From Candidatus Iainarchaeum sp. (GTDB taxonomy: Archaea; Iainarchaeota; Iainarchaeia; Iainarchaeales; GCA-2688035), in the NCBI GenBank assembly GCA_017610205.1, contig JAFCCL010000015.1:1-20470 (forward strand): a stretch of DNA of 20,470 bases, given 5' to 3'. The stretch's first letter is position 1. Every line of letters starts with the position of its first letter. The notes below the pieces were generated by a model. The model did no database searches and was not told the origin of the DNA. It saw only the letters and a list, made by a program, of their open reading frames with translations. Below are positions 1-17,464 of this stretch, piece after piece. A program made the position numbers and the translations under genes.

Positions 1-1142
1 TGCACTGTAATTCAAAACGTCCCATAAAGCAGTATTGTCATAACCCAAATCCTGTTGTCTGTTGTAATCAATCATCAAAGCAAGTGCGCCTGCAACCTGG
101 GCTGCGGCAACACCGACTGAATCAGTGGCATTTACAACACTGCCATCCAAAGCCAAAACAGGCACTTCTTCGCCAGGGGCAAGGACTTCGGTATACTTCC
201 ATGTGTCTGTTGTAACTTCTTGTGGGTCGTACCTTGTATGGGCACCAACGCCTATAACATTAGAATAAACTGCGGGACCTGCATAAGGGTATTCGTAAGT
301 TGGTGCTACATATATCATTCCTTCTGCATAACTGCTGTTAAATAATTCGGCTAATACGTAATATCCATATGATCCAACACCCATATATATAATGTCTACA
401 TCTTCTTGAAGCAAAGCCCATTCTATAGCTTCAAGTATTGTTAGTACACTTGTGTTTCCTGTGTCGTTTCCGACTTTGAGTGCGTAGTATTGTGTTTGTG
501 GTGCTGTGCCTTCTGTTGTTCCTATTGCGCTTAGCATACTTGAGGCCATTTCTGTTCCGTGTCCGTATTCGTCCATTGGGTCGTTGTCCTCTTCAATGCA
601 GAAGTATCCTTCTCTAACTGAGCAAAAGTCGTATCCTCCTAGATATTTTGCTCCGTTTATGTCTGGGAGGTTGTAGTTGACTCCTGAGTCGATTATTGCT
701 ATTGTTACTCCTTGACCGTCTACGTTGAAGTTGTTCCAGGCGTTTTCTGCGTTTATTCCTGTTTCTTCAAGGTTCCATTGGCTTCCTGTGGTGTGGCTTG
801 TTATTTGAGTTCCTTCGCTCATTATTGTTAATTCACTGCCTTTGGCTTGGCTGGTTGCTGTTGGCCCTATGTATATAGCTTGATTTTCTTCAACACTTTC
901 AACTCCTAGCTCCTGCCTTAGTTGTTCTGCTGCTGCTTCTGTGAGTTTTGCGGTTACGGCGTTTATGTGCTGGAATTCGTGGCCTGTCTCGCCGTATTCT
1001 ACCACAATTGCCTTGCTTGTCCCTTCTGATAGCAGGACAATGTATACTTTGGCTTCTTCTTGGCTTTGATTGTCTTCAGCAAAGGCTATGCCGGAACTAG
1101 AACAGTCAATAGTATAACGGCGGCCAGTTTTTTGAGGCTCAT
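1..1142 (-). pseudogene. S8 subtilisin-like protein (signal peptide, I9-like propeptide, S8 domain); frameshifted after the signal peptide, catalytic Ser position is Gly; runs off the window edge
   Basis: Manual translation. ATG at 1142 gives MSLKKLAAVILLTVLVPA then TAG (1086-1088). A 1-nt shifted frame reads SGIAFAEDNQSQEEAKVYIVLL...GQGVTIAIIDSG (Asp 688-690)...DEYGHGTEMAS (His 559-561)...VLAPGEEV...DSVGVAAAQVAGALALM and stays open to position 1. Not in the ORF track. Confidence 0.85.
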
Positions 1143-2418: not shown

Positions 2419-3513
2419 TTATTTATTAGAGAGACAAAATTCATTTATCTTGTCAATAACTATTTTACTGTCTTTAATTTTCATAGACGGGTAATTTGGC
2501 AGTGAAAGGATTTGTCTACAAAATTTTTCGGTATTTGGTAAGACACATTTAAAGTTAGAGAATATTGGTTGCTTGTGTATTGGGATTGGATAGTGTATTC
2601 CTGTCTGGATGTCATTTTTGTCCAAGTGTTCCCTGAGTTTGTCTCTTTCGTTTACTCTTATCACATATTGATGGAAAACATGTTTTGAATTATTCCTTTG
2701 TGTCGGTTTTGTTATTTTTTCGGTGAGGTACTTATCGTAACTTGATGCGATTTTTATCCTCTTTTCATTCCAGTCATCCAATTTCTTTAGTTGTTCTATT
2801 CCAATAGCTGCCATTATTTCATTCATCCTAAAATTTAGAGTCAAGACCTCACTTATATATTTTCCTTCCTTTTTAGAATAGTTTCTTCCATGGTCTCGAA
2901 GCGTTTGGGTTTTCTTGTAAAGCTCTGGATCGCTTGTTATTACCATCCCTCCATCGCCACACACGGTCATGTTTTTTGCGGGAAAGAATGAAAAGCAAGC
3001 AATATCGCCAATCGAGCCGGCTTTTTTTCCGTGGTATTTGGCTCCATGAGCTTGCGCAGCATCCTCTACCAAGTAGAATCCTTTTTTCTCTTTTAAAGCT
3101 AACAACTCGTCCATTTCACACATTTGACCATAAAGATGAACTGCAATTACTGCTTTTGTATTGGTAGTCAGTTTTGACTTTAAATCTTTGATATCTATTG
3201 TGTATGTTTCATCTACGTCTACAAACACTGGCTTTGCGCCGCACATTAAGATTGGAGAAGCTGATGCAATGAAGGAGTGGCTTGGAACAACCACTTCGTC
3301 TCCCCTACCAACTCCCAATGCTCTCAGAGCAATATAGATTGATGCTGTGCCATTGCATGTTGCTGTACCAAATTTTGTCCCGCAATAATTTGAGAATTCT
3401 TCTTCAAACTTTTTAACAATTGGGCCTTTAATATATAACCCGCTTTTTAGAACTTTTACCGCAGCATTAATCATCTTTGGTGTAACTAATGGTCTGCTTA
3501 ACGGTATCCTCAT
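2419..3513 (-). CDS. DegT/DnrJ/EryC1/StrS family PLP-dependent sugar aminotransferase
   Basis: Motifs NGTASIY, GDEVVVP, VHLYGQ, EDAAQAHG, SFFPAKN (PLP Lys), GDGGM, HGR, IHYPIPIH, LSLP. ATGA overlap with the upstream gene. Confidence 0.95.
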   Translation of the reverse strand: MRIPLSRPLVTPKMINAAVKVLKSGLYIKGPIVKKFEEEFSNYCGTKFGTATCNGTASIYIALRALGVGRGDEVVVPSHSFIASASPILMCGAKPVFVDVDETYTIDIKDLKSKLTTNTKAVIAVHLYGQMCEMDELLALKEKKGFYLVEDAAQAHGAKYHGKKAGSIGDIACFSFFPAKNMTVCGDGGMVITSDPELYKKTQTLRDHGRNYSKKEGKYISEVLTLNFRMNEIMAAIGIEQLKKLDDWNEKRIKIASSYDKYLTEKITKPTQRNNSKHVFHQYVIRVNERDKLREHLDKNDIQTGIHYPIPIHKQPIFSNFKCVLPNTEKFCRQILSLPNYPSMKIKDSKIVIDKINEFCLSNK

Positions 3514-4451
3514 ACTGCAATCTCCTTTCCTTGTTTAGCAGATATTAGGCACTTTTCACAGAGCCTGACTGTTTCTAATGCCGCTTCATCAACAAATGTT
3601 TTGTTTGAATTAACCAAGTTTACAAAATATTTGAGCTCTTCAAAAAGGGGTTCATTCTTTCCGAATTTTATCTCCGTTTCAGCTCCACGAACCACCCTAT
3701 TTTCTAGCATTTTGATTGGGTAACTTGTAATTGATTGCTCAAGAAGGTCTGCATAAATTTTTTCGTTTTCTGCAATAACCCAAACGTCTCTTTTTTTTAG
3801 AGGATGCAACCAACTCATCTCTAAATTTGCAACAAAACCATCATATTTCAATGTAATTGACGCAAAATCTTCTCTTTGGTTCCCTAAACAATTCACTTTA
3901 GAACAATATACTCTTTTTGGTTTTTCTTCTAAAAGAAAACTCATTGTGTCTATTAAATGGCTGCCAAAGTTAAAGATGACCCCGCTGTCTTTTCTTGGCG
4001 GCTTATGTGAATGAATGAACCTTGCAGTAATGTAATTTATATTTCCTGTCTTTAAAAGAAGGTTTCTAAGCTTTAAAACTCCTGCATTGAACCTAAAAAG
4101 GTGTCCAACCATTAATGAAACGTTTTCGGCTTTGGCAATTTTCACTAACTTTTTTCCCTGTTGGTAGTTTAGTGTCAACGGTTTTTCCACAAAAACGTGC
4201 TTGCCTTTTTCAAGAGCTTTTTTCACAATTTCATAATGTAAATGTGTTGGAGCAACTATAGATACTGCGTCAACAAGATTTAACGCGTCTTCATAATTAG
4301 TAAAAAACTTTGCACCGTATTGTTCAGCAATTCTTTGTTTGCTTGGGTCGATATCTGCTAATGCCACAAGTTTGCATTCAAGGTTTGACAATATCCTTAA
4401 ATGATTTGTAGCCCACGCTCCAACTCCAATCACCGCAATCTTTGCCACCAT
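3510..4451 (-). CDS. Gfo/Idh/MocA family NAD-dependent oxidoreductase (WlbA/WbpB-like sugar dehydrogenase)
   Basis: Rossmann motif IAVIGVGAWA, PTHLH, HVFVEKP, VGHLFRFN, GVIFNFGSHLID, EPLFEEL. Coupled to the DegT gene. Confidence 0.93.
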   Translation of the reverse strand: MVAKIAVIGVGAWATNHLRILSNLECKLVALADIDPSKQRIAEQYGAKFFTNYEDALNLVDAVSIVAPTHLHYEIVKKALEKGKHVFVEKPLTLNYQQGKKLVKIAKAENVSLMVGHLFRFNAGVLKLRNLLLKTGNINYITARFIHSHKPPRKDSGVIFNFGSHLIDTMSFLLEEKPKRVYCSKVNCLGNQREDFASITLKYDGFVANLEMSWLHPLKKRDVWVIAENEKIYADLLEQSITSYPIKMLENRVVRGAETEIKFGKNEPLFEELKYFVNLVNSNKTFVDEAALETVRLCEKCLISAKQGKEIAV

Positions 4452-4457
4452 TTCTAA

Positions 4458-5180
4458 TCATCTTAAGTGAAACTTTTCTTTTACAAAATCTATTTCTTGC
4501 TGAATTTCTTTTCTGCAATCTATATATGGTATTTTGCTTTCAATTACAAAAGGAACATTTAAATCTAAAAGAGGCCTGATTTCCCTGAGGATATTTTCAG
4601 GTGTTTGGGTAAGTAACAAGTGGTCTGTTGAACTTCCTCCAATTTGGGATATTCCGCTCAAATGCACTCCAATTATATACTCTTTAAGTGCAAGGAAATC
4701 TTTTGGCAAAATCGAGTTAACGAGGGCATGCGTTGGATCCAAAACTAGTTTTAAGCCATGGTATTTCTCTAAGAGAACACGGTTCTCCTCAACTGTTTGC
4801 AAACCTTTCTTTTTTTTTCCATCAGGAGCATTCTCAATCGCTGAAACAAAACCAGATTGAAAGACATACTTATAATCTTGAATTTGGTGGCTATGATAAA
4901 TTAGCTTTTCGGCTTTGACTTCCTTTGCCTTTTTTGTTATTTGTTCAATTGTTTCCTTGCAAGATTGTGAAGAATCATACACACCTGTATTTGGCATATG
5001 TACAGAGTTCTCGTTATAACCCTCCAATATACTAATGGTTGAATCTACTAAACCAGCAGTGGCCAATTCTTGACCGAATATTTCCACCCCATCAATTTCA
5101 AATTGGCTCAAAAACTCAATTTTTTGATTAAAGTCCATTTTTTGACTGATAAGGGTAACGAAAGAAATAATCACTTTCAT
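4458..5180 (-). CDS. xylose isomerase-like / AP endonuclease family 2 TIM-barrel metalloenzyme
   Basis: Metal-ligand pattern GVEI, SVHMP, IYHS, AIEN, LVLDPTHA, GVHLS, DH, VIES. First gene of the minus-strand operon. Confidence 0.8.
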   Translation of the reverse strand: MKVIISFVTLISQKMDFNQKIEFLSQFEIDGVEIFGQELATAGLVDSTISILEGYNENSVHMPNTGVYDSSQSCKETIEQITKKAKEVKAEKLIYHSHQIQDYKYVFQSGFVSAIENAPDGKKKKGLQTVEENRVLLEKYHGLKLVLDPTHALVNSILPKDFLALKEYIIGVHLSGISQIGGSSTDHLLLTQTPENILREIRPLLDLNVPFVIESKIPYIDCRKEIQQEIDFVKEKFHLR

Positions 5181-5218
5181 AAGAAAACTTTAAGTAATAA
5201 CATCTCTTAAAGTATTAC
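5181..5218. promoter_or_regulatory. overlapping divergent archaeal promoters with two opposed ACTTTAAG TATA boxes
   Basis: ACTTTAAG at 5187-5194 (+) is 24 nt before GTG 5219. Its reverse complement at 5206-5213 is 25 nt before ATG 5180 on the minus strand. Confidence 0.7.
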
Positions 5219-6451
5219 GTGAAACAAAGCAAAAACATAAAAATAATGTACTACAGCCACAATTCGCATGGACTAGGACATTCCACTCGTGCACTAGCAA
5301 TACTAACCGGCATCAAAAAACAAAATCCAAATTCTGATATACTAATAGCTGCCGGAACAGGGGTCCCACACATCTTTTTGAATCAAGGCATAGAGATTGT
5401 CAAGCTACCTTCAATCAAAATGACAGACAATCCCGATAATTCAACATCCTTAATTCCAAGATACTTAAAAGCAAGCCTTAGCGAAATATCAGAATTAAGA
5501 AGAAGAATACTACTTGATACTTTCGATTGCTTTAAACCCAATGTTCTGATTGTAGAACACGCTTTTTTTGGGCAAAATGCCGAAATGTTACCAATTTTGA
5601 TGCGGCGATGGGTGGAAGATAGGAACCACCAAAAAAGAAGCTTTGCAACGGTCTATATCTCAAGGGGCATAATGGATTCCCCACGAAGAGTAAAAAGCCT
5701 TTGGAAGGAAAAAACCCAAAAAGGAGGTTCAATAGATGGAACAAACTTGTTTGACTTGGTTTATATAATGGAAGACAAAAAAACAATAAACTTCAAAAAA
5801 GATTATCAGCTAGACAAACAGTTTTGTGACAGAGCTAAATATTTGGGAAAAATTACGATAAAAACCAAAAAAGAACTCGTACGCCCACAAGAAATAAAAG
5901 AATATTATGGTATTCCTGCTAACGAAAAAATTATTCTAGTTAGCCTAGGCAGATGGAAAGGAATCGAAAAAATCTTAGATGTGTTACTCAAAACTTTTAA
6001 GGAAATCAATGGCAAAAAAGAGTATAACCTGTTAGTCCAAATTGACCCTTTTTTGGACAAAGAAATCATTGCAAAACACATTAAAAACAAGGATTCCAAA
6101 ATAAAGTTCCTTGATTACATTCCTCAAATGATTGACATGATCAATGCCGCGGATCTGGTCATATGCCGTGGGGGCTACAATACGATTGCAGAAATATTGC
6201 TCACAAACACAAAAGCCATTTTATTCCCCGAAATAGGCAGAACAGAAGAAGAGCCTTACCGGGTAAAAAAAGCATCTAAAAACAAAAACATTGTTTATTT
6301 AGACGAATTTAATTTAACAAAGAAAGAATTCAAGAAAAAAACAATTCAACTACTGAAACAAAAAAAAGGACTCCCCAAAAACAATTTCGACAAATACAAA
6401 ATTGGAAAAACAATTTTGAATGACATTAAAAAGCAATTTAATAGACTTTAA
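5219..6451 (+). CDS. GT-B glycosyltransferase, COG4671-like / GT28 C-terminal-like
   Basis: MYYSHNSHGLGHSTRA, IVKLPSI, RRRILLDTFDCFKPNVLIVEH, ILVSLG, ADLVICRGGYNTIAEIL. GTG start is supported by TATA spacing; an alternative ATG is at 5246. Confidence 0.88.
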   Translation: MKQSKNIKIMYYSHNSHGLGHSTRALAILTGIKKQNPNSDILIAAGTGVPHIFLNQGIEIVKLPSIKMTDNPDNSTSLIPRYLKASLSEISELRRRILLDTFDCFKPNVLIVEHAFFGQNAEMLPILMRRWVEDRNHQKRSFATVYISRGIMDSPRRVKSLWKEKTQKGGSIDGTNLFDLVYIMEDKKTINFKKDYQLDKQFCDRAKYLGKITIKTKKELVRPQEIKEYYGIPANEKIILVSLGRWKGIEKILDVLLKTFKEINGKKEYNLLVQIDPFLDKEIIAKHIKNKDSKIKFLDYIPQMIDMINAADLVICRGGYNTIAEILLTNTKAILFPEIGRTEEEPYRVKKASKNKNIVYLDEFNLTKKEFKKKTIQLLKQKKGLPKNNFDKYKIGKTILNDIKKQFNRL

Positions 6452-7617
6452 TTAAGCTTATTTTTTAAAAGTTTTTTGTAAACAGAAATCCATTTTTTTA
6501 CTTCAACTTCAGCATTCAACTGCTTTATGACTTTGTGATACGCATTCTCACCCAAAGCTTGCCTCTTTTTTGGGTCTTTGAGCAGAGCCAAAATTGCATA
6601 AGTTAATTCTTCTGCAGAACGCGGGTTTACTATCAAACTATCCTTGTTGTGTGTTAATAGCTCGGGCATGGATCCAACGCTTGTAGCAACAATTGCTTTC
6701 TTTTCAGCCATTGCCTCAACAATCGCGTTTGGGCTCCCTTCTGAGGTGGATGGATAAACCAAGATGTCAACTGAGCTAAGTGCCTTTAAGCCATCTTTAT
6801 GAGGCAACAATCCAGTAACAATTATTTTGCCCGCGAGCCCTAACTCTTCAATAAGCTTTTTGTATTCTGCATCTTCCCCTTTTCTCACCTCACCAATAAC
6901 AAGCAGCATCGCATTTTGATGCGTTTTCAGCACCTCGCTAAAGGACCTTAAAAGGTATGTGAAACCTTTTTTTCGCTTAATTTCCCCAAACGCCCCAATC
7001 ACAATCTTGCCGTTTAACCTATCATCAAATTTGCCTGTGACTGAGTTAGGAATAACATTAAGGTCAACATGATTATACACTACCTCTATTTTTGCTTTCG
7101 GAACAATTAGTTTAGCCCATTCTTTCAAGTCTGAGCTAACCGCAGTTATTTTGTCTACATTTTCCAAAGTCCAGCGAATCAAAGGAAATTTTGTTGGGTT
7201 AAAGATGTCATTCCCAATATCATTACCCTGAATTGTTACAACCACAGGCTTCTTTAGCTTTTTTCCAACCAAGGTAGCAATATAGCCTGATGGGACAATA
7301 TATTGCCCATGAAAAATATCAAAGTCATATTTCTGGTCAAGAACCCCCAAAGCATAAGCTAGATTGTCTAGCCCCCATGCATAAAAAGGCTGGTCCAACG
7401 GGTTCGTAGTTGCAGGAGATACAAAGTGAACAGGAATACCATCAATTTTATTTGACCGTATTTCTGTTTCAACACTTACTTTACTGCTTTCCAAAGCAAC
7501 TATGTGAGCTTCAACATTTTGATCCATCAAGTGCAAACAAAGCCTTTTAGCAATTATTGAAATTCCTTCAGACTCAAGAAATTTCGGCAGAACAAAACAA
7601 ACCTTAAATTTTCTCAT
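6448..7617 (-). CDS. glycosyltransferase family 4 (retaining GT-B)
   Basis: DIFHGQY, KPVVVTIQGND, ITAVS, KRKKGFTYL, PSTSEGSPNAIVEAMA (E-x7-E), IVATSVGSMPE. Confidence 0.93.
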   Translation of the reverse strand: MRKFKVCFVLPKFLESEGISIIAKRLCLHLMDQNVEAHIVALESSKVSVETEIRSNKIDGIPVHFVSPATTNPLDQPFYAWGLDNLAYALGVLDQKYDFDIFHGQYIVPSGYIATLVGKKLKKPVVVTIQGNDIGNDIFNPTKFPLIRWTLENVDKITAVSSDLKEWAKLIVPKAKIEVVYNHVDLNVIPNSVTGKFDDRLNGKIVIGAFGEIKRKKGFTYLLRSFSEVLKTHQNAMLLVIGEVRKGEDAEYKKLIEELGLAGKIIVTGLLPHKDGLKALSSVDILVYPSTSEGSPNAIVEAMAEKKAIVATSVGSMPELLTHNKDSLIVNPRSAEELTYAILALLKDPKKRQALGENAYHKVIKQLNAEVEVKKWISVYKKLLKNKLN

Positions 7618-7698
7618 AATAAACTTTCACCACAAAAATATTTATATGTACTCCATTAGATAACACTTAAAAAACTATAATTACCCTTTTTATATGGT
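7618..7698. promoter_or_regulatory. divergent promoter region
   Basis: ATATAAATA on the minus strand (7639-7647) precedes the GT4 start. CTTAAAAA (7666-7673) lies about 25 nt before ATG 7699. Confidence 0.45.
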
Positions 7699-8724
7699 AT
7701 GCCAAAAAGGTCAAACAAAATGGTAACCCACAAAATGGGCAGAATGCGGGTATCCTATACCCCCCAAAGCCGCGGGTTGTTGACTGAACATAGCAAGGCT
7801 GTTAAAAAAGAAGCTAAGGCAAAAGGGCTTTCTGGAACCTACTCTGTTTTTAGAGACTTAATCACACCCTCAAACCGATTAAGTGTCAAAAAGATAGACG
7901 GAAAGTGCTATATCATTACGCCATCAAAGCCATTTGTTGGAATCTTAACCGATGTCAATGTTACACCATCTAGAACAATTGCACGAAAAGGCGGTGGACC
8001 AGTTGAAACAGTCTATTGGCTCAAAAGACTGCAAGGGTCAAGCGAGCAAAAAAGAGTATTTGTTAAAGACCAGCGTGACCAAAAGAGCCTTCGTTTAGAA
8101 AAAAGAGAGATAGAAGATGCCCGAAGGCAACAAAGAAGAGTTGGTATTGGAGTGCCAAATTTTGTTTTGAGAGTTGAACCAACAGATAGAAGCAGACGCA
8201 TTACTGTCACAGAATTATTAGAGGGTGTTGAACCAGTAGATAAATTTGTTCAATCGCTTCCAAGAGCAAAAAAAGAAAAGATAATTAGACAAGTTAATGA
8301 ACTCGGGTTAAGTTTGATTAAGAAAGGGCTTTTTCCAACCCAAACCAAAGGAGACCATATCTTAATTTCGAAAGATGCCCCCGCAAAATTTTTTATTGCA
8401 GATAGTGCAGTTGGTTTTACCCCCACATCCCTAAATAGGTTAATGCTATTACAAACCCTAAAAGAAGACCCAAGTATCAGAAGGCCTGACTGGAACTCTG
8501 TTCATCGAAGTTTTTCAGGAATGCAAAGGTACTGGAAGAGTCTGCCCAAGGAAGCTAGAGAAAGAATACAAGTTAGACAACTAAACATGTTACTGGATGA
8601 AATACACCGAGGTCCTGGAGCCAGACCACCTTGGCAAAAGTTAGCAAAGAAAGTTGATGCCCTGGTCCTAGAAATGTTTTCTAATTGTAAATACGCACAA
8701 GAAATTAGGGAGAGGGTTAGATGA
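7699..8724 (+). CDS. protein-kinase-like fold protein (Kdo/WaaP/RIO-like) with a degenerate catalytic loop and basic N-terminus
   Basis: VFVK (beta3 Lys), REIE (alphaC Glu), GIGVPN, ITVTELLEG (hinge), GLFPTQTKGDHILI where HxDxxxxN is expected, FFIADS where DFG is expected. ATGA overlap with the radical SAM gene. Confidence 0.55.
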   Translation: MPKRSNKMVTHKMGRMRVSYTPQSRGLLTEHSKAVKKEAKAKGLSGTYSVFRDLITPSNRLSVKKIDGKCYIITPSKPFVGILTDVNVTPSRTIARKGGGPVETVYWLKRLQGSSEQKRVFVKDQRDQKSLRLEKREIEDARRQQRRVGIGVPNFVLRVEPTDRSRRITVTELLEGVEPVDKFVQSLPRAKKEKIIRQVNELGLSLIKKGLFPTQTKGDHILISKDAPAKFFIADSAVGFTPTSLNRLMLLQTLKEDPSIRRPDWNSVHRSFSGMQRYWKSLPKEARERIQVRQLNMLLDEIHRGPGARPPWQKLAKKVDALVLEMFSNCKYAQEIRERVR

Positions 8725-9800
8725 AGGCTCCAATTTCTAATGATAAAGAAGGTCTTGAGTTTTTTAAATCATGGATTAAGAATAAACCAGTAGCACCAAC
8801 TGTTGTAAAGCTCAACTTGACAGAAAGATGCAATTCAAGATGCAAAATGTGCTTTTACTGGAGAAAAAAACCACTAGACGACATGCCTTCAAAAGTAGTA
8901 GAACAGCTCTTGAATGAATTGGCTTGTCTGGGTACAAAAACCATAACTTTTTCAGGGGGAGAAGCACTACTCCACAAAGATATAATCCCATTAATTAAAA
9001 CTGCTTCAAAAAAAGGTTTCAGAACTATATTGCTAACCAATGGCCTGCTTGTCTCAAAAGAGAAAGCCAAAGAAATAGTCTTAGCAGGAACAAACACAAT
9101 AGAATTCTCCATAGACTCGCATAAAAGGAAAACAAATGACGAAATACGCGGAATTAAAGGCGCATATGACAAAGCAGTTAATGGAATAAAATTCATTAAC
9201 CTCTTCAAAAAAAAGTACAAAAAAAATATTTCAGTTACACTTTGCTCAGTATTAAATGCCAAAAACTACAAAGACATGCATAAAATCCTGTTGCTAAAAA
9301 AATACGGGGTTAATAGCTTTCATTTTTATCCAATGCGCCCGTACGTTGGCCAAAAACCAAATCCAGAACTAAACACCACTAAGAAACAAGAAAACTTTTT
9401 TGCAAAAAAAACATTGCCAAAACTAATATCGCTGGCTAAAAAAAATGGATTAAACAAGAAAGAGATTTACAGGGCAATTTATATGTTCATAGAGAGCAAT
9501 CCAAAACCACCTTGCTTTTTACCAATGTTTCACGCAACCATTGACACAGATGGAGAAGTATTCCCCTGCTGCCACGCAGCAGACCACAGACAAATAAAAA
9601 GCGTCTCAATGGGAAACATACTCAACAACACATTCAAAAAAATCTGGCTAGGAAAAAAATTCCACAAATTCAGAAAAAGCACCAAACACAAACTATACTT
9701 CTTCTGCAACGACTGCATTTACACAAACACAAATACCGAATGCCAAAAAGCATTAGTTTATTTTAACAAAGAACAAAACAATAACCAAAAAAAGGGATAA
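8721..9800 (+). CDS. radical SAM protein with SPASM/twitch auxiliary Fe-S domain
   Basis: CNSRCKMC, FSGGEALLH, LTNG, FSIDS, IRG. C-terminal C-x17-CC-x44-CxxC including GEVFPCC, MGNI and KIW. Confidence 0.93.
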   Translation: MKAPISNDKEGLEFFKSWIKNKPVAPTVVKLNLTERCNSRCKMCFYWRKKPLDDMPSKVVEQLLNELACLGTKTITFSGGEALLHKDIIPLIKTASKKGFRTILLTNGLLVSKEKAKEIVLAGTNTIEFSIDSHKRKTNDEIRGIKGAYDKAVNGIKFINLFKKKYKKNISVTLCSVLNAKNYKDMHKILLLKKYGVNSFHFYPMRPYVGQKPNPELNTTKKQENFFAKKTLPKLISLAKKNGLNKKEIYRAIYMFIESNPKPPCFLPMFHATIDTDGEVFPCCHAADHRQIKSVSMGNILNNTFKKIWLGKKFHKFRKSTKHKLYFFCNDCIYTNTNTECQKALVYFNKEQNNNQKKG

Positions 9801-9803
9801 TTG

Positions 9804-10730
9804 ATGTTTAAGCGTGCTGGAAAAAAATGGACGAAAAAGACAGTTACAAAAATCAAGGCAGGCAAGCCACGCCCATTGGCAGTTGCGGAAACAATATCCG
9901 AACAAACAGCAAAAAGAATTCGCCTAAAACAAAAACGGCCATTCACAACAGAAGACCTCAAAAGATTAAGATCTAAAGTCTTCCCACGAACTTACGGCAC
10001 ACGATTCGAAGGAATTATAAGAGACAGATTGTTCAGACTAAAACAATCCGCAAAAAAAAGGCTAATTGCAGAAACATTTGGGCTAAAAGGAGAAAGACTA
10101 GGCCTACTAACAATCCAACCCGAAATGCAAGGTTACGTTCCAGAAATCAGAAAATTTCTTTCCACCCTTGGATGCAAAATAATATACTCAAAAAACCTAA
10201 TTTTAACCAAAGGACAATTATATGACATATTTGGAAAAAAACAAATGCATCTATACTGGGACTTTCCAATAGAATCATCTGTAATGCTCTGCAACCCAAT
10301 AAAAGTACTCGTGTTCAGGCACCTAAGTCCAGAACAATACTTACAAAAATCCCGCTATCTAGAACACCTCCGAAATGCCAACCCAAAAAAACACAAAAGG
10401 ATAATTGACAGACTAAGCAAAGCAACCGGGCAAGCAATATTCGACAAAATATTCAAAGGGGAACACGAAGAAGTACAACCAGGAACAATCAGGGGAGACA
10501 TAGTTCAAGCAAAACTAAAAGAAATGGGATTCAACACGCCAACACTAGTACAAAAAGGAAAATTATTAGATATGTTTGGCTTTTTAGAAGCCCATCCTGA
10601 CATTCCTGCCCTTTCAGTATTTGGAGGAGTTCATGCACCAAAAGCAGAAGAACTATTCAAAGAAGCCACAATTTTATTCACAAGAACGGAACTACAAGAA
10701 ATCAAAAAAAGAACATCAAAAAAAGCATAA
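9804..10730 (+). CDS. divergent nucleoside-diphosphate-kinase-like protein with a long basic N-terminal extension (paralog 1)
   Basis: LLTIQPE (cf. IKPD), GCKII, CNPIKVLVF (cf. SGPVVAM), QPGTIRGDI (NDK signature PGTIRGD), GVHAPKAEELFKEATILF (cf. NxxHGSDSxESAxREIxLFF). ATG at 9804, 3 nt after the rSAM stop; TTG 9801 is an alternative. Confidence 0.7.
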   Translation: MFKRAGKKWTKKTVTKIKAGKPRPLAVAETISEQTAKRIRLKQKRPFTTEDLKRLRSKVFPRTYGTRFEGIIRDRLFRLKQSAKKRLIAETFGLKGERLGLLTIQPEMQGYVPEIRKFLSTLGCKIIYSKNLILTKGQLYDIFGKKQMHLYWDFPIESSVMLCNPIKVLVFRHLSPEQYLQKSRYLEHLRNANPKKHKRIIDRLSKATGQAIFDKIFKGEHEEVQPGTIRGDIVQAKLKEMGFNTPTLVQKGKLLDMFGFLEAHPDIPALSVFGGVHAPKAEELFKEATILFTRTELQEIKKRTSKKA

Positions 10731-10855
10731 CAAAAACTACCGATTTAAATACCTTCCTTGTACTTGACGGTTTTTATGAAGCTTTCTGCAAAGACATAGA
10801 CATATAAGCGAGAAAAACGGAAAATTTGTTAAACTCATTTGATTAGTATACTTAT

Positions 10856-11548
10856 ATGGATATTTTTATCACGAGCTTAAGTGAAGGGGCAAAAAAAGCA
10901 AAAGGACTAACTGTCGTTATAGACGTATTTAGGGCTTTTTCAACTATTTGCTATGCTTTTGGTAATGGCGCAAAAGAAGTAATCCCTATAAAAGAATCTG
11001 TTGATGCATTTGAATTGAAAAAACATGACCCTGCACTTGTTTTGATGGGCGAAGAAAACGGCTTAAAAATTGGAGGGTTTGATTTTGGCAATTCACCCAC
11101 AGAAATCGAAAACGTTGACTTTAGCGGAAAAACAATTATAATGAGAACAAGTGCCGGGATACAAGGAATTCTATACGCAAAAAACGCAAGTGAATTAATT
11201 ACCGGAAGCTTCGTTAACGCAGGAGCAATAGTTAATTACATTAAGAAAAAAAACCCTAAACTTGTCACTTTAGTCCCAATGGGGAATGATGGAACAAAGA
11301 AAGTTGACGAAGACGAATCATGTGCCGAATACATTAAAAATTCTTTACTTGGAAACGAAACAGATTTTTTAAAAATCAAAAACCACTTAAGAAATTATAA
11401 AACAGCCCTAAAATTCTTTAACTCAACCAACCCAGAGGCTCCAGAAAAAGATTTTGAATTATGCCTTAACCTAAACAAATTTAATTTTGTGTTAAAAGTA
11501 AAAAAAGAAGGTGTATATCCTAAAATAGAAAAAGTGTTTGCTGAATAA
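10856..11548 (+). CDS. comB: 2-phosphosulfolactate phosphatase (ComB) family protein
   Basis: VVIDVFRAFSTI, LMGEENGLKIGGFDFGNSP, MRTSAG, GSFVNAGA, EDESCA, DFELCL. Family-level call; no other coenzyme M genes are in the window. Confidence 0.88.
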   Translation: MDIFITSLSEGAKKAKGLTVVIDVFRAFSTICYAFGNGAKEVIPIKESVDAFELKKHDPALVLMGEENGLKIGGFDFGNSPTEIENVDFSGKTIIMRTSAGIQGILYAKNASELITGSFVNAGAIVNYIKKKNPKLVTLVPMGNDGTKKVDEDESCAEYIKNSLLGNETDFLKIKNHLRNYKTALKFFNSTNPEAPEKDFELCLNLNKFNFVLKVKKEGVYPKIEKVFAE

Positions 11549-11612
11549 CAATAATCTCTAGCCTAAAAACGAACAACTGTGAAGCAGAATAAAAAACCTT
11601 GGTTAAGTTTCT

Positions 11613-12530
11613 TTAAGCCAACCTTTGTCGTATCCTTTTTAGTTCCGGTATTGTTAAGAGGACCGCTACTTCTCGGAATAGTTCTGTTTCTTTTGGAGAA
11701 TGTACACCTCCTAGCATGCTCATTGCTCTTAAATCAGGATGTTTTTTCAGGTACTCTAATGGGTCAAGCATTTTTTCCCTCTTGTTATTAGTACCCCCTT
11801 TTTCAAATCCTTTGCCTACAAGCCAAGGGTACACTATGTCGCCTCTTATTGTTCCTAGTTGAACTTTTTCATGTTCTCCTTTGAAAAGCTTGTCAAAGAT
11901 TGTTTGCCTGCTTTTATTAGAAAGGTTAGAAAGCTGGTATTGGTATTCTTTTGGGTTGTTAATTTTTAAGTGTTTGAGATATTTTGATATTTTGAAATAT
12001 TCTTCTTTTGATGGGTGCTTGAAAACAACTATTTTTGACGGGGAACTCAAAAATGTTTGGGTAGTAACTGGAAAATTGTTGTAAATTTGCATTTGCCTGT
12101 GTCCAAACAGACCGTATAGCTGCAATTTTGAGAAAATAATATTTTTACTGAATACTATCTTGCATTTTGAGTTGGATAAAAAGCGTCTTACATGTTTTGT
12201 TTGCCCCATGAACTCTGGTTGAATTACAAGAAAACCTAGTTTGTTTCCTCTTAAGCCAAAAGTTTGTTCAATTATTCTTTGTTTAGATTTTTTTTTAAGT
12301 GCTATAAGTTTTTTGAACAGGTTTGGATTGGCGATAAGACTTCTTTTCTTCGGGTAAGAAAGCCGTTTTAGGTACTTCATATCTTCTACTGAAAAGCCGT
12401 GTACGTTCTTTTTTACTCTTCCTTTCACTTGCTCTGAAAGATTTTCTAAGACGCTTCTTTCTCTTGATTTTCCTGAACGCATTTTTGAAACGATTTTTCG
12501 AATACCTGCGCGTGTTTTTCTTTTAGACAT
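11613..12530 (-). CDS. divergent nucleoside-diphosphate-kinase-like protein with a long basic N-terminal extension (paralog 2)
   Basis: Colinear with 9804-10730, sharing TFGLxG, IQPE, SKN, IFDKxFKGEHE, GTIRGDIV, HPD and GGVHxPK..ELFxE. Confidence 0.7.
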   Translation of the reverse strand: MSKRKTRAGIRKIVSKMRSGKSRERSVLENLSEQVKGRVKKNVHGFSVEDMKYLKRLSYPKKRSLIANPNLFKKLIALKKKSKQRIIEQTFGLRGNKLGFLVIQPEFMGQTKHVRRFLSNSKCKIVFSKNIIFSKLQLYGLFGHRQMQIYNNFPVTTQTFLSSPSKIVVFKHPSKEEYFKISKYLKHLKINNPKEYQYQLSNLSNKSRQTIFDKLFKGEHEKVQLGTIRGDIVYPWLVGKGFEKGGTNNKREKMLDPLEYLKKHPDLRAMSMLGGVHSPKETELFREVAVLLTIPELKRIRQRLA

Positions 12531-12774
12531 TCTACTCTAATTAGTTTTCTTTTTAGTTCTTATTAACCTTTTTGCATGCCTGTTTTTTGGAAACGTTTCT
12601 AAAACAAGTTTGTTAACACTTTTTAATAGCTTCTGCCAAGTAATCTAGCACTTAGCTCCTGCCTCAAAACTTTTTTGCTAACATAAAGACTAAAAACTTT
12701 CTTTGGCTTTTTATGTCTGGCGTCACCACTTACAAATAAAGTGCTTTTAACTATTTCCTTGCACACTCCAATGC

Positions 12775-13221
12775 ATGCCTGAACAAGCAAAACTTGGAAT
12801 AAGAAAAGCAAAAGAAACAGACTTACCTGCTTGCATAAAAATAATGATTGAAGCCTTTGCAGGGCAAGAGAACTGGACAGAGAAAACAGCAAGGGGAAGG
12901 CTTGAAGAAAAAATAAGAGAAGCACCAAACCTGTGTTTCTGTTTGGAACTTGAAGGAAAAGTAGTTGGCTTCATGTTCTGCGAGCAATTCGATTACGCAA
13001 AAGGCAATTACTTGTGGCTAGCAGAATTTGCTATAAGCCCTAAAGAACAAGGAAAAGGATTCGGAAAACAAGCACTGAAATTCATTGAAAACCTTGCAAA
13101 AGAAAACAAATTTAACATATTATACCTAGTAGCAAACAAAAAAGAAAAAGCATACAAAATTTACCAAAAACAAGGATTCAAAAACACAAACCAGTTCTTC
13201 ATGGAAAAAGAACTAAAATAA
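12775..13221 (+). CDS. GNAT family N-acetyltransferase
   Basis: IRKAKETDL, VVGF, LWLAEFAISPKEQGKGFGKQAL (acetyl-CoA motif A), AYKIYQKQGF. TTTTAA TATA-like box at about 12745-12750. Confidence 0.92.
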   Translation: MPEQAKLGIRKAKETDLPACIKIMIEAFAGQENWTEKTARGRLEEKIREAPNLCFCLELEGKVVGFMFCEQFDYAKGNYLWLAEFAISPKEQGKGFGKQALKFIENLAKENKFNILYLVANKKEKAYKIYQKQGFKNTNQFFMEKELK

Positions 13222-13314: not shown

Positions 13315-13941
13315 CTAGAATTCTAAGAATTCCATTGCTCTGCCGGCGTTTTTCGAGTCAATAACGATTAGAGTGTCGTCATAGCAACTCATGAACTCCT
13401 CGATGTTTACGCCGTTTTCGAAGAAAAGACTTGAGAGGTATGCGACTGCTCCAGGTGTTGCCTTAATGCCCGGGCTTGTTATTGTGATTAAAGAAAGGCT
13501 TTCTTTTTTGCTGGTTGTGTAGTTTTTGAGTTTTTCAAGCAGTTGCTTGTTTTGCTGTTGGACTATTACTGTAATGGTTTTTGTTCCCTCAATTGTGAAG
13601 AACAGTGCTTTGTCTTTTTTGATTTCGCGCTCTATGTCAATCAGGGAATCTGGGTATATGTGTTTTTCAAGCGTGAAGGTTACTATGTTGTTTTTTATTT
13701 CCAGGTTGCTTTTTTTGAACAGCTTTATTACCTTGTCTTCCCATTGCTTGTTTTCTATTTTGTCTTTGAATCTTATGGCTGCGATTGCGATTGCTTCCCT
13801 GCTCGCCTTTTTCTCCAGGCTGAGTTGTTTTGCAATAAACTTGGATAGTGCCGAGTAGTTAATCAGGCCTTTTTTGAGGCAGTCTTTGATGGAGATGTGT
13901 GTGGAAATGAATTTTTCTGCAAGTGCTGCTGTAGAAGCCAT
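13315..13941 (-). CDS. ACT-domain putative amino-acid-sensing regulator
   Basis: Helical N-terminus (IKDCLKKGLINYSALSKFI). C-terminal ACT-like segment LSLITITSPGIKATPGAVAYLSSLFFENGVNIEEFMSCYDDTLIVI. Divergent from the arg operon. Confidence 0.75.
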   Translation of the reverse strand: MASTAALAEKFISTHISIKDCLKKGLINYSALSKFIAKQLSLEKKASREAIAIAAIRFKDKIENKQWEDKVIKLFKKSNLEIKNNIVTFTLEKHIYPDSLIDIEREIKKDKALFFTIEGTKTITVIVQQQNKQLLEKLKNYTTSKKESLSLITITSPGIKATPGAVAYLSSLFFENGVNIEEFMSCYDDTLIVIDSKNAGRAMEFLEF

Positions 13942-14123: not shown

Positions 14124-15383
14124 ATGAAGGAGATGCTGGTAAAGTTTTTAGAGAAAGCAGGAGAGAACTCAGAGTTCAAGCTTTTTCACAGCATGTACAA
14201 AAGCCTTCCTGCCGGAAAGTTTGCAGTTGTAAAGGTTAGCGGTGAAACCTTGGAAAAGCATTTGGACGAAATCGCGGAAGACCTTGCTTTTCTGAACAAG
14301 CTTGGCATCTGCCCAATAGTAGTGCATGGGGCAGGCTCGACACTGGACAAAATGCTGCCATGCACAAAAAAGGTTGATGGCGTAAGATTTACAAGCAAGG
14401 CTGACATGAAAACCGTGAAAAAAGTTTTCAACAAGCTAAGCACCGAACTTGTAGGCAAAATCGTAGAAAAGGGCGGTAATGCAGAACACATTGAAGGCGT
14501 TTTTGAATGTGAGGCACTCAAAGGATTTGGATATGCCGGCAAAATAAAAAGTCTAACCCTGAGCACAATAGAGAAAACTGTAGAAAAGAATGCTGTGCCA
14601 ATAATAAGCCCTATTGGAAAAAAAGACGGTGTTGAATTTAACATTAATGCAGATACTGCTGCAAAAGAAATAATAAAGGCAGTGCAGCCAAAAAAATTCA
14701 TTTTGGTAACGGAAACAGGCGGCATCCTTGACAAAAACAACAAACTGCTTCCATTCATTAACCTATCTTCCAAAGATGCATTTGACAACATTAGTGGCGG
14801 AATGTTGCAGAAAGTAAAGGAAATAAAGGAATTCTTGGACAGCGGAATTGAGTGCGCGGTTGTGATAACATCAGCGGAAAACATGCTTAAAGAAATATTC
14901 ACTGTAAAAGGAAGTGGCACATTAGTCAAAAGTCATGCCATAATATTAAGCCAAGGCTTTAACGACTTGAATAAAAGCAAACTGAAAGGCTTGCTGGAAG
15001 ACGCTTTTGGCAAAAAGCTTGCCGAAGGCTATTTTGAGGATGAAGCAAAAGAAGTGCTGTACCAAAAGGACTGCGAGGCCGTAGCAATAATAAAAGAAGC
15101 CAATGAATTGCCTTACTTGGACAAGTTTGCTGTAGCAAAACACTGCCAAGGAACAGGCCTGGGAAAAAGCCTCTGGGAAGAGCTAGATAAAAAATACAGC
15201 AAACTCGTTTGGAGGGCACTTGCCTGCAACGGCGCAAACAGCTTTTATGACAAGCAATGCGACGGATTTGTTAAAAAAGGCAAGTGGAAAGTATACTGGA
15301 AAGGGCTATGCGAAAAAGAAATAATGCAGAGTGTTGAAGCAGTGGCAGAAAAGCAAGCCACAATGATTGAGGAGGCGGTTTGA
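14124..15383 (+). CDS. argB: acetylglutamate kinase fused to a NAT (DUF619) domain; bifunctional NAGS/NAGK type
   Basis: Kinase domain VVKVSG, IVVHGAG, DGVRFT, NINAD, TETGGILD, GGMLQKVKEI, EIFTVKGSGTLV. NAT domain PYLDKFAV, QGTGLG, LVWRA, FYDKQCDG, WKVYWKGL. Confidence 0.92.
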   Translation: MKEMLVKFLEKAGENSEFKLFHSMYKSLPAGKFAVVKVSGETLEKHLDEIAEDLAFLNKLGICPIVVHGAGSTLDKMLPCTKKVDGVRFTSKADMKTVKKVFNKLSTELVGKIVEKGGNAEHIEGVFECEALKGFGYAGKIKSLTLSTIEKTVEKNAVPIISPIGKKDGVEFNINADTAAKEIIKAVQPKKFILVTETGGILDKNNKLLPFINLSSKDAFDNISGGMLQKVKEIKEFLDSGIECAVVITSAENMLKEIFTVKGSGTLVKSHAIILSQGFNDLNKSKLKGLLEDAFGKKLAEGYFEDEAKEVLYQKDCEAVAIIKEANELPYLDKFAVAKHCQGTGLGKSLWEELDKKYSKLVWRALACNGANSFYDKQCDGFVKKGKWKVYWKGLCEKEIMQSVEAVAEKQATMIEEAV

Positions 15384-15384
15384 A

Positions 15385-16542: not shown

Positions 16543-17464
16543 AGTTGGAATAGTTGGTGCAGCAGGCAATGCAGGACTTATGCTCCTAAAGTTATTAGAA
16601 GGCCACAAAAAGGCAAGCGTGGAACTAGCCTGCGACATCCACAATGCTGGAAAAAAAGTAACCGCCCTCTTACCCAATACCAACTATGGCTTAAAGTTTT
16701 CAAAACTTTCAACAAAAGAACTAAACAAGTTGGATGTCACATTCTTGGCTCTGCCGCATGGAATAGCAAAATACTTGGCACCGCAACTGAAGTGCAAGGT
16801 AATTGACCTGAGTGCAGACCACAGGATGACAAACACTTATGGTCTGCCGGAATTATTCAAAAAACAAATAAAAGAATCCAATTTGATTGCAAACCCTGGC
16901 TGCTATGCAACAGCATGCATTCTAGCATCATACCCCTTAAGGGGCCTGTTGAAAGAAGCAGTATTCAACGGAATAAGCGGCTATTCAGGTGGCGGAAAAA
17001 ACCCAAAATACGACTTTGAGGAAAATATCATGGCTTACAAGCTAACAAGCCACCACCAGCTAAAAGAGCTGTCCAAAATTCTGGGATTTGATTTTTCCTT
17101 TACTCCACACGTCGTAAACTCCTACAAAGGAATACTGTGCACAGCACATCTTTCCTTAAAAGAAGAAGTTGATGCAAAAACGATTCTCAAAGAATACAAG
17201 AAATTTTATAAGGAAACATTCACAAAACCAGGGAAAAAAATCCCCTGCACAAAAGACGTGATTGAAACCCCCTACTGCAACATAGGCGGATTCGAAACAA
17301 CAGGCAAGCACATCATAATAGTTTCAGCAATAGACAATCTGATGAAGGGTGCCGCTTCTCAAGCAATAGAAAACATGAACCTAATGTTTGGCTTAAATCG
17401 CAAAGAGGGACTAAAACAGCCTGGCTGCAATTTTGGCAAAACATACAAGGGAGTAAAAAAATGA
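16535..17464 (+). CDS. argC: N-acetyl-gamma-glutamyl-phosphate reductase
   Basis: GIVGAAGNAG, FLALPHG, IDLSADHR, YGLPEL, ANPGCYAT (catalytic Cys), SGYSGGG, FTPH, IDNLMKGAASQA. 8-nt overlap with argD. Confidence 0.95.
   Translation: MIKVGIVGAAGNAGLMLLKLLEGHKKASVELACDIHNAGKKVTALLPNTNYGLKFSKLSTKELNKLDVTFLALPHGIAKYLAPQLKCKVIDLSADHRMTNTYGLPELFKKQIKESNLIANPGCYATACILASYPLRGLLKEAVFNGISGYSGGGKNPKYDFEENIMAYKLTSHHQLKELSKILGFDFSFTPHVVNSYKGILCTAHLSLKEEVDAKTILKEYKKFYKETFTKPGKKIPCTKDVIETPYCNIGGFETTGKHIIIVSAIDNLMKGAASQAIENMNLMFGLNRKEGLKQPGCNFGKTYKGVKK

Follow-up and report, generated by a model that had tools for sequence, protein, structure and literature searches.

A conserved gene cluster couples sugar enzymes to a radical SAM enzyme and to proteins with a nucleoside diphosphate kinase fold in a DPANN archaeon

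We analyzed a stretch of 20,470 nucleotides from Candidatus Iainarchaeum sp. (the window, which is the entire contig JAFCCL010000015.1, or C15), a DPANN archaeon whose genome of 1.37 Mb lies on 24 contigs and is 92% complete. The window carries sugar enzymes together with a radical S-adenosylmethionine (rSAM) enzyme and two proteins related to nucleoside diphosphate kinase (NDK). A core, made of a GT4 glycosyltransferase, the rSAM enzyme, and an NDK-like protein with Gln in place of a conserved Lys, and an extended set (a DegT aminotransferase, a Gfo/Idh/MocA dehydrogenase, a GT28-like enzyme, a kinase-like protein, and a phosphatase) form a conserved unit with shuffled gene order, because core and extended set recur in one other genome of the phylum and the core in a second, and because the NDK-like proteins linked to the rSAM gene form a subgroup of their own. 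Positions 2419-12530 probably represent one functional cluster, to which the rSAM enzyme and the Gln-variant NDK-like proteins are integral. Taken singly, the sugar enzymes are unexceptional and belong to known families; what is new is their conserved coupling to a BtrN-type rSAM enzyme and to an NDK-fold family not previously described, with its Gln-variant subgroup. A narrow literature search without supplements found no description of either the coupling or the Gln subgroup, and one general review surfaced. Below, genomes of the phylum are denoted by G numbers (G000 being the source genome) and fetched loci by L numbers. The genes are as follows.

2419..3513, minus strand: DegT/DnrJ/EryC1-family aminotransferase dependent on pyridoxal phosphate (PLP) (PF01041, 406 bits)
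3510..4451, minus strand: Gfo/Idh/MocA NAD-dependent sugar dehydrogenase (PF01408, 104 bits, and PF22725), overlapping the DegT start by 4 nt
4458..5180, minus strand: xylose-isomerase-like (AP_endonuc_2) TIM barrel of 240 aa, with no Pfam match of its own
5181..5218: divergent intergenic region of 38 nt with an inverted repeat, CTTTAAG/CTTAAAG, seen by inspection
5219..6451, plus strand: GT28-like (MurG/PseG-type) GT-B enzyme (PF04101, 53 bits)
6448..7617, minus strand: GT4 glycosyltransferase, member of the conserved triad (PF00534, PF13439)
7699..8724, plus strand: basic 341-aa protein labeled kinase-like (KinL), whose stop overlaps the rSAM start by 4 nt
8721..9800, plus strand: rSAM enzyme with one auxiliary-cluster pattern of the twitch type (PF04055, PF13186)
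9801..10730, plus strand: NDK-fold protein 1, directly abutting the rSAM stop (by AlphaFold2, VIA, and hhalign)
10856..11548, plus strand: phosphatase of the ComB (2-phosphosulfolactate phosphatase) family (PF04029, 167.7 bits against a cut-off of 26.4)
11613..12530, minus strand: NDK-fold protein 2, a paralog 43% identical to copy 1 and with the same Gln variant
12775..13221, plus strand: GNAT acetyltransferase (PF00583)

All 11 consecutive open reading frames (ORFs) between 2419 and 13221 stand where the first-pass annotation had placed them, and so do the overlapping starts and stops and the short divergent gaps that it described. By their coordinates, the DegT and Gfo/Idh/MocA (hereafter Gfo) genes, the convergent GT28-like and GT4 genes, and the KinL and rSAM genes overlap by 4 nt each, the rSAM gene is followed by NDK-like copy 1 with a gap of 0 nt, and the divergent gaps measure 38, 81, and 244 nt; the cluster genes are translationally coupled. 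Most of the family calls hold as well (by Pfam and NCBIfam and, for the NDK fold, by AlphaFold2, VIA, and hhalign), but the kinase-like call fared less well, being drawn only from the labels of neighbors in a protein language-model Atlas. Four of the 11 proteins have no Pfam match: the 240-aa TIM barrel, the 341-aa kinase-like protein, and the two NDK-like proteins of ~305 aa.

The unit recurs in a second genome and its core in a third. In G136, which belongs to another family of the same order, seven window families lie within ~9.3 kb (L031:4958-14243) in shuffled order (identities: DegT 50%, GT28-like 43%, NDK-like 36.5%, rSAM 36%, GT4 31%, Gfo 29%, KinL 27%), accompanied by a PHP phosphoesterase and a class I methyltransferase. 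There the GT28-like, Gfo, DegT, rSAM, and methyltransferase genes follow each other on one strand with overlaps of 16-35 nt, and the GT4 and NDK-like genes overlap by 4 nt. In G181, of a third family, a 4-kb contig that ends on both sides of the genes carries the NDK-like, methyltransferase, rSAM (44% identity), and GT4 genes on one strand; the GT4 ORF was called at 473 aa, and its true start probably abuts the rSAM stop because homology begins only at residue 96. A profile of the rSAM enzyme scored 540-627 bits in three of the 215 genomes of the phylum (G000, G181, and G136) and 137 bits at the next match, and every one of these rSAM orthologs (3/215 genomes) adjoins a GT4 gene and a Gln-variant NDK-like gene. 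The first-pass annotation had held that the proposed island would fall if its homologs did not co-occur elsewhere, or if the DegT, Gfo, and glycosyltransferase genes grouped with standard archaeal N-glycan loci and the kinase-like, rSAM, and NDK-like genes were unlinked. This test does not overturn the island: seven families occur together in G136 and the triad in G181, and in the G136 operon DegT itself overlaps the rSAM gene.

This synteny contradicts a chance neighborhood for the core genes, so that an ordinary sugar operon lying beside unrelated rSAM, NDK-like, and phosphatase genes appears extremely improbable: the seven families stand together in G136 in another order, with overlaps between DegT and rSAM and between GT4 and NDK-like genes, and the triad stands in G181. 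For ComB and GNAT chance is possible, and neither of these, nor the TIM barrel, nor the second NDK-like copy, is conserved with the rest. ComB occurs in 3/41 relatives, the only other checkable ComB locus (in G039) has no cluster gene nearby, and its tie to the cluster is specific to G000; all its NCBIfam equivalog scores are under the cut-offs. The phosphatase slot is filled by ComB in G000 and by the PHP enzyme, from a different family, in G136; one phosphatase may have displaced another at an analogous step. Likewise specific to G000 are the TIM barrel, which has no counterpart in the G136 and G181 clusters, and the second NDK-like copy. GNAT is probably a neighbor and not a member, and we do not count it in the cluster because it is kept in relatives without the island (73% identity in G007, 56% in G023, and 47% in G002); its proposed part, with the kinase, in self-protection is on that account a conjecture. 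The core of the 11-gene island is conserved; GNAT is probably unrelated to it, and three members (ComB, the second NDK-like copy, and the TIM barrel) belong to the G000 cluster only. Six genomes of the same genus (79-92% complete) lack the NDK-like, kinase-like, and ComB genes and give no rSAM match at E ≤ 1e-30; in synteny with them, only the S8 peptidase at the window's left end and GNAT have counterparts, on unrelated short contigs.

The rSAM enzyme has, conserved in the three orthologs, C37, C41, and C44 (CxxxCxxC) and, toward the C terminus, C265, C283/C284, C329, and C332, along with the glycine residue G278. No other Cys is conserved, and the pattern C...GxxxxC...CxxC offers one auxiliary set, not a seven-Cys SPASM motif. 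In twitch domains, C...GxxxxC...CxxC replaces the seven-Cys SPASM motif, and the C-terminal pattern observed here fits a single auxiliary cluster, as judged from the aligned sequences. Among solved structures, the enzyme scored 50.5 bits to SkfB, 48 to BlsE, and 27.5-28 to BtrN. BtrN residues 166-246 align only to the C-terminal residues 262-343 (~80 residues), where C265, C283/C284, C329, and C332 fall on BtrN residues 169, 188, 232, and 235, which we take to be auxiliary-cluster ligands.

Several closer identities for the enzyme were considered and rejected. It was not accepted as a BtrN ortholog, the match being C-terminal only and at ~28 bits, with SkfB and BlsE scoring higher. The PADLOC models of prokaryotic viperins (pVip) gave 97 and 86 bits, the 97-bit match spanning residues 28-237 only, and a viperin was rejected on the NF038283 score (82 bits against a cut-off of 180), the SPASM C terminus, and the higher scores of generic SPASM families; the best NCBIfam model was TIGR04317, at 130 bits and under its cut-off of 380. 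Maturation of a ribosomally synthesized and post-translationally modified peptide, a candidate because SkfB is the best solved match, was dismissed as well, since the short gaps hold no precursor-sized ORF and the partners are sugar enzymes. PHROGs returned generic rSAM matches only. A metagenome scan with the rSAM alignment gave 80 loci, with a best identity of 29%, and none of the 80 encodes a relative of the NDK-like or kinase-like protein (tblastn, E ≤ 1e-5).

The AlphaFold2 model of NDK-like copy 1 (alignment of 50 sequences) reached a pLDDT of 94.7. Its residues 93-308 aligned to NDKs by VIA-align with Z of 12.1-12.8 and a root-mean-square deviation of 2.0-2.8 Å over 132-142 residues; 246 of the 753 aligned chains reached a Z of at least 8, and the 50 entries listed were all NDKs. 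Foldseek gave NDKs throughout among the matches listed (E of 1.2e-3 and weaker), and hhalign paired the protein with the genome's own canonical NDK (C13:95159-95560) at a probability of 89.9%. On this modeling, the ~305-aa paralogs have a true NDK fold, a call that is well supported. Neither of the two window proteins matches PF00334, the Pfam NDK family, at E ≤ 0.01; 15 of 50 members of the NDK-like family do so at E ≤ 1, with a best value of 8.9e-6.

H277 is invariant in the family (50/50 members), stands at a strand end in an N/G-G-V-H-x-P motif, and by its position would be the equivalent of the NDK nucleophile; an invariant Arg lies in a T-I/L-R motif. Alignment by hhalign pairs LLTIQPE of the NDK-like protein with LVIIKPD of the genome's NDK, which sets Gln at the conserved Lys. 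Both window copies and those of G136 and G181 have Gln here, and 29 of 50 family members have Lys; all four NDK-like proteins linked to the rSAM gene read IQPE, and 11 other members have K, R, N, or H. In NDK, the Lys that is replaced here presumably touches the gamma-phosphate and the 3'-OH of the nucleotide. At the second residue ahead of the invariant His, the four rSAM-linked proteins have G, V, or A and other members mostly N, S, or T. The four group together in a tree of 15 sequences, with a support of 91/97 that is under the tool's star threshold. In common with NDK (PF00334), the window proteins have the full fold, and their invariant His and Arg may correspond to residues of NDK; they differ in being about twice the size, with a basic helical N-terminal extension of ~95 residues and insertions of ~70 residues, in having no Pfam match, and in the Gln for Lys of the four rSAM-linked copies.

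The NDK-like family as a whole is rare: it comprises 147 representative clusters (E ≤ 1e-3) among 1.84 billion proteins and is present in 16/215 genomes of the phylum. Four of 10 members sampled bear a name, in each case "hypothetical protein". From 14 other genomes we took 15 loci with an NDK-like gene, ran blastp between them and the window, and scanned their neighboring ORFs (all 38 in L028, L031, and L032, and 88 of 139 in the remaining 12). In five of the 15 loci (L029, L033, L034, L035, and L037), the ORF next to the NDK-like gene is a NUDIX gene, and in eight (adding L030, L031, and L040) one lies within 8 kb. In L030, a CYTH gene and a weakly RelA/SpoT-like ORF (E of 2.3e-4) stand beside the NDK-like gene. 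In G152, the NDK-like gene belongs to an operon (L032:901-6886, on C16, minus strand) with GTP cyclohydrolase I (FolE), a QueE-like rSAM enzyme, QueD/PTPS, and Ham1, and further with a glycosyltransferase, an rSAM-SPASM enzyme, a 117-aa protein of no named family, and a phosphoribosyltransferase; a 566-aa rSAM enzyme, an AP_endonuc_2 TIM barrel, and a UbiA-family gene lie beside it. Judged by its genes, this operon would seem to make a 7-deazapurine nucleotide or nucleoside. Given the NUDIX neighbors and the G152 operon, the NDK-like family therefore generally keeps nucleotide-metabolizing company.

Other features of these loci were seen in passing. A basic protein of ~180 aa, with no Pfam family, lies 3' of the NDK-like gene in G010 (L009:1974-2525) and G030 (L034:1335-1871); the two are alike by eye and may be a conserved partner of the NDK-like protein. 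In G137, a 701-aa ORF (L029:13548-15653) near GcpE has a radical SAM domain at its N terminus, fused to an HMG-CoA reductase domain.

The company of the family bears on the possibility, which we consider quite unlikely, that the product of the cluster derives from a nucleotide or nucleoside and is, for instance, a modified nucleotide, a defense molecule, or an antimetabolite. The NDK-like protein would then handle an unusual nucleoside phosphate, the rSAM enzyme would alter its sugar (compare MoaA, viperin, and BlsE), the glycosyltransferases would add an amino sugar, and the phosphatases would trim phosphates. Besides the NUDIX, CYTH, and RelA/SpoT-like neighbors and the FolE/QueE/QueD/Ham1 setting in G152, such a product is favored by the CYTH and two NUDIX genes that lie, in G136, between the cluster and a second GT4-rSAM pair, by the pVip scores of the rSAM core and the second-best solved match to BlsE, and by the Lys-to-Gln change at a position that presumably contacts the nucleotide. 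The window contig, however, has no NUDIX, phosphoribosyltransferase, or base-synthesis gene, and the genome's five NUDIX genes are on other contigs; the rSAM enzyme has a SPASM/twitch domain that has no counterpart in viperins, and its pVip score is under that of generic SPASM (130 bits); and G152 shares with the window just the NDK-like and TIM-barrel families. The TIM barrel matches the PADLOC candidate model PDC-M70B (41 bits), on which a literature search for PDC-M70 found nothing relevant, and there is no further PADLOC match; among viral contigs there is no relative of the NDK-like or kinase-like proteins.

Turning to the sugar enzymes, the best PDB match of DegT is 7b0d (349.5 bits, ~52% identity), deposited as "glutamine--scyllo-inositol transaminase"; we found no paper on it in a literature search, and the name may be automatic. 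Next come QdtB (281 bits), 2oga, which we take to be DesV (262), WbpE (236), NtdA (179), BtrR (169), and AHBA synthase (141). Judged from these sequence scores, the closest relatives of DegT are nucleotide-sugar C3 aminotransferases. A paralog of DegT is encoded elsewhere in the genome, on contig C3. The top NCBIfam model for Gfo is the archaeal UDP-N-acetylglucosamine (UDP-GlcNAc) 3-dehydrogenase (NF040723), at 204 bits and under the 450-bit cut-off, with IolG at 95 bits, and its best solved match is 7bvj (68.7 bits), presumably a UDP-GlcNAc 3-dehydrogenase. The Gfo of G136 is 29% identical to that of G000 and scores best to IolG (101 bits, with NF040723 at 82). Gfo and DegT are adjacent in both genomes, overlapping by 4 nt in G000 and by 16 nt in G136. 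For the TIM barrel, Atlas neighbors are PF01261 (AP_endonuc_2) clusters, and a G152 protein with which it shares 32% identity (L032:8647-9360) passes PF01261.

These matches allow a pathway to an aminocyclitol, after the manner of Btr or Str enzymes, in which inositol or its phosphate would be oxidized, aminated, oxidized again by the rSAM enzyme, glycosylated by GT4 (compare BtrM and MshA), and phosphorylated and then dephosphorylated. We think such a pathway very unlikely. It would suit the name given to 7b0d, the IolG-like Gfo of G136, the alignment of the C-terminal Cys spacing with BtrN 166-246, the presence of MshA among the solved relatives of GT4, and the myo-inositol-1-phosphate synthase encoded in the genome, although inositol-phosphate synthase is common in archaea owing to lipid synthesis. 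AP_endonuc_2 TIM barrels occur in inositol pathways (IolE and IolI). But a search of the 92%-complete genome turned up no gene of the dehydroquinate-synthase type (2-deoxy-scyllo-inosose synthase; PF01761), the name of 7b0d is possibly automatic, and the Gfo of G000 prefers UDP-GlcNAc 3-dehydrogenase (204 bits) to IolG (95 bits). No amidinotransferase, deacetylase, or exporter is present, and BtrR, at 169 bits, is far under the nucleotide-sugar aminotransferases. In its specifics, the analogy to Btr and Str enzymes that had first been proposed is thus not borne out, with no 2-deoxy-scyllo-inosose synthase found and BtrR at 169 bits against 236-350 bits for C3 aminotransferases and 7b0d.

The GT28-like enzyme, which is 43% identical to its counterpart in the G136 cluster and matches MurG, MJ1255, and PseG weakly in NCBIfam, would by sequence be either a transferase or a nucleotide-sugar hydrolase. 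GT4 scores best to BshA (131 bits, under the 274-bit cut-off) and, in the PDB, to BshA (86 bits) and MshA (54 bits), with enzymes of the PglA/H type at ~40 bits. BshA and MshA, its best solved relatives, use small-molecule acceptors. The GT4s of G136 and G181, 31-33% identical to it, score highest to TuaC, slightly above BshA.

Another possible explanation, nearly as likely as the one that we favor below, is that the cluster is an accessory module for surface glycans, which the enzyme families would suit just as well. It would make an unusual modified amino sugar in the form of a nucleotide sugar, and the two peripheral GT-B enzymes would add this sugar to a lipid-linked N-glycan, an S-layer glycan, or a glycolipid. 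Assembly and flipping would be done by genes elsewhere, for example the AglB island on contig C3, and the kinase-like protein would phosphorylate the glycan as WaaP, WaaY, and KdkA phosphorylate the core of lipopolysaccharide. Several results above agree with this: the best family of Gfo (204 bits) is one that serves N-glycan sugars, DegT is nearest, after 7b0d, to QdtB, to a DesV-like enzyme, and to WbpE, the GT4s of G136 and G181 score highest to TuaC, and glycolipid kinases (Kdo and WaaY) are among the Atlas neighbors of the kinase-like protein. So do the presence of AglB and the DegT paralog on C3 and the distribution in 3/215 genomes, which is typical of variable surface-antigen genes.

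Against a surface glycan stands the absence of any flippase, polyprenyl-phosphate transferase, oligosaccharyltransferase, or membrane protein from the cluster versions. As first proposed, no membrane protein is among the 11: no 19-residue window reaches a Kyte-Doolittle mean of 1.6 or more in any of them, by what is a crude test, and in the G136 cluster proteins there is no membrane segment save one hydrophobic stretch in DegT. Nor does the cluster stand at the AglB locus. AglB and three of the four NTP-transferase genes are on C3, away from the cluster, and a Pfam scan of ~19 kb on each side of the G136 cluster matched no STT3/AglB or flippase-type family; those flanks hold tRNA synthetases, ribosomal genes, and Nop/fibrillarin genes, so that the cluster sits mostly amid housekeeping genes. 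Nor do the NDK-folds and the phosphatase have an obvious role in decorating a glycan. Close to the G136 cluster lie a CYTH gene, two NUDIX genes, and two small ORFs without a known family, and beyond these a second overlapping pair of GT4 and rSAM/SPASM genes (L155:408-2553; C1:698407-700552); 2.4 kb upstream of the cluster, L031:669-2573 encodes a 634-aa protein in which eight membrane segments are predicted and whose C-terminal domain is a class I methyltransferase.

The kinase-like protein has no Pfam, NCBIfam, or PDB match. Its neighbors in the language-model Atlas are labeled protein kinase, Kdo, or WaaY (feature score 0.97), its AlphaFold2 model (alignment of two sequences) has a pLDDT of 42, and hhalign against the genome's own kinases of the RIO/Bud32 type gave probabilities of 0.2% and 1.0%. 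By its Atlas labels, it possibly has a protein-kinase-like fold. Across the 215 genomes, its profile matched strongly in G000 and G136 only; three further genomes at 14 bits (E of 0.003-0.009) are regarded as chance. Word-index searches for homologs of the NDK-like and kinase-like proteins returned nothing beyond the query itself.

The reading that we favor, tentatively and with somewhat less than even confidence, is that the cluster makes a soluble amino-sugar glycoside, not linked to lipid, in the cytoplasm, by way of intermediates that are phosphorylated and then dephosphorylated. In such a pathway, Gfo would oxidize a sugar hydroxyl, most likely at C3 of a UDP-hexose or UDP-N-acetylhexosamine, and DegT would turn the ketone into an amine. 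The rSAM enzyme would carry out a second, radical step on the same sugar (an oxidation, epimerization, or deoxygenation), and in the relatives, where a class I methyltransferase adjoins the rSAM gene, methylation may be added. GT4 and the GT28-like enzyme would either free the sugar from its nucleotide or pass it on to a small acceptor that carries phosphate. The kinase-like protein would put a phosphate on, and the phosphatase (ComB here, PHP in G136) would take it off. The Gln-variant NDK-folds might recycle the NDP left by the transferases or serve as phospho-histidine carriers for an unusual acceptor. It is because a phosphate would be added and then removed, as in compatible-solute synthase/phosphatase routes and in the Rif kanosamine route, that the product would be a soluble glycoside made via phosphorylated intermediates; the Rif route joins an oxidoreductase, a transaminase, a phosphatase, and a kinase (RifL/K/M/N; PMC8788734). 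The absence of a membrane or export component, the position away from the AglB locus, a GT4 nearest to enzymes with small acceptors, and the phosphatase in both cluster versions would all be consistent with a soluble glycoside.

Other observations weigh against it. The Gfo and DegT pair, GT4, GT28-like, and rSAM enzymes are all common in surface-glycan loci, and GT4 and MurG-like enzymes often use lipid-linked acceptors without a membrane helix of their own. Since the Gfo enzymes of G000 and G136 are only 29% identical and have different best families, the two clusters may have different first steps. The kinase call is weak, ComB is not retained along with the cluster, every family match that names a substrate is under its curated cut-off, and the patchy distribution fits variable surface antigens equally well.

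WbpB/WbpE, GnnA/GnnB, and the archaeal UDP-GlcNAc 3-dehydrogenase pair resemble the cluster in the overlapping Gfo and DegT genes, with WbpE at 236 bits; however, Gfo, at 204 bits, is under the 450-bit cut-off, there are no WbpA, WbpD, or WbpI partners, and the pair is coupled here to an rSAM enzyme, an NDK-fold protein, and a phosphatase. Butirosin synthesis (BtrR/BtrN/BtrM) shares with it a DegT transaminase, an rSAM enzyme with a single auxiliary cluster, and a GT4, but no gene of the 2-deoxy-scyllo-inosose synthase family was found in the genome, BtrR reaches 169 bits, BtrN matches over the C-terminal 80 residues only, and there is no deacetylase or exporter. The low-molecular-weight thiol routes, with a GT4 (BshA or MshA) and a phosphatase, and the compatible-solute synthase/phosphatase routes are alike in the kinship of GT4, in the phosphatase, and in having soluble proteins throughout, but GT4 (131 bits) is under the 274-bit cut-off of BshA, a deacetylase and a Cys ligase are missing, and the GT4s of G136 and G181 are nearer to TuaC. 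The kanosamine routes (RifL/RifK/RifM/RifN and NtdC/NtdA/NtdB) combine a 3-dehydrogenase, a PLP transaminase, a phosphatase, and a kinase to yield a free amino sugar (PMC8788734). NtdA and AHBA synthase reach 179 and 141 bits to the cluster DegT; the cluster's phosphatase (ComB or PHP) and basic kinase-like protein, in contrast, belong to other families, two glycosyltransferases and an rSAM enzyme are extra, and AHBA (3-amino-5-hydroxybenzoate) genes are absent.

A pathway to pseudaminic acid was considered on account of weak PseC-, PseG-, and PseH-like matches and was rejected: these scores are under their cut-offs, and the Pfam matches of the cluster proteins, with no targeted search made, include none of the PseB, PseI, or PseF type, going by the families that we presume for those enzymes.

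The arms of the inverted repeat in the 38-nt region (5181..5218) each lie ~25-31 nt upstream of one start codon and are possibly two opposed TATA-like boxes, which would give the region a promoter role. The GC content of the island is 0.359 against 0.377 for the genome, at the 10th percentile of 10-kb windows and no outlier, and composition thus gives no hint that the island was transferred recently. A tRNA scan and an Rfam scan of the window gave no match. Among sequencing runs, none of RNA was listed for the window, and one DNA run had a 0.09 share of the words sampled. At the left end (1-1005, minus strand), a subtilase (S8) gene runs off the contig, and a DNA copy of it, 76% identical, lies at the end of contig C12 (G000:C12:21565-22547). 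To the right, 13315-13941 (minus strand) encodes an ACT_7/DUF7523-like protein, a homolog of which (23% identity, E of 2e-14) adjoins the NDK-like gene of G008 (L039:7868-8566). An arginine biosynthesis operon follows (14124-18648, plus strand), in which successive genes overlap by 4-17 nt: a fused amino-acid kinase and NAT (ArgB/ArgA-like), a class III aminotransferase (ArgD-like), a semialdehyde dehydrogenase (ArgC-like), and argininosuccinate synthase. Positions 18925-19485 (plus strand) encode a 186-aa protein with several winged helix-turn-helix domains (HTH_33, HTH_29, HTH_23, and HTH_32) and a 72%-identical DNA match in G014; it presumably resembles a transposase in its N-terminal portion.

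With their tiny genomes, DPANN archaea are thought to retain little biosynthesis beyond the essential, and a stand-alone, conserved cluster for sugar chemistry with a radical enzyme is notable in such an organism. It is unlikely, in our estimate, that the cluster is a new small-molecule pathway of DPANN archaea in which the Gln-variant NDK-fold protein works with the BtrN-type rSAM enzyme and is a phospho-histidine phosphotransferase dedicated to a non-standard substrate, such as a sugar or nucleotide that bears a modification where canonical NDK reads it with Lys. The product could then be a glycoside of an amino sugar or aminocyclitol, or a modified nucleotide that is glycosylated, and could help the symbiont to interact with its host or to resist viruses. 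If the cluster just decorates a surface glycan, it would add modestly to what is known of archaeal glycobiology. Of wider interest is a new family of NDK-fold enzymes of ~300 residues with a basic helical extension; identifying the substrate of this family could bring to light a phosphotransfer step that is new to the metabolism of nucleotides or nucleotide sugars.

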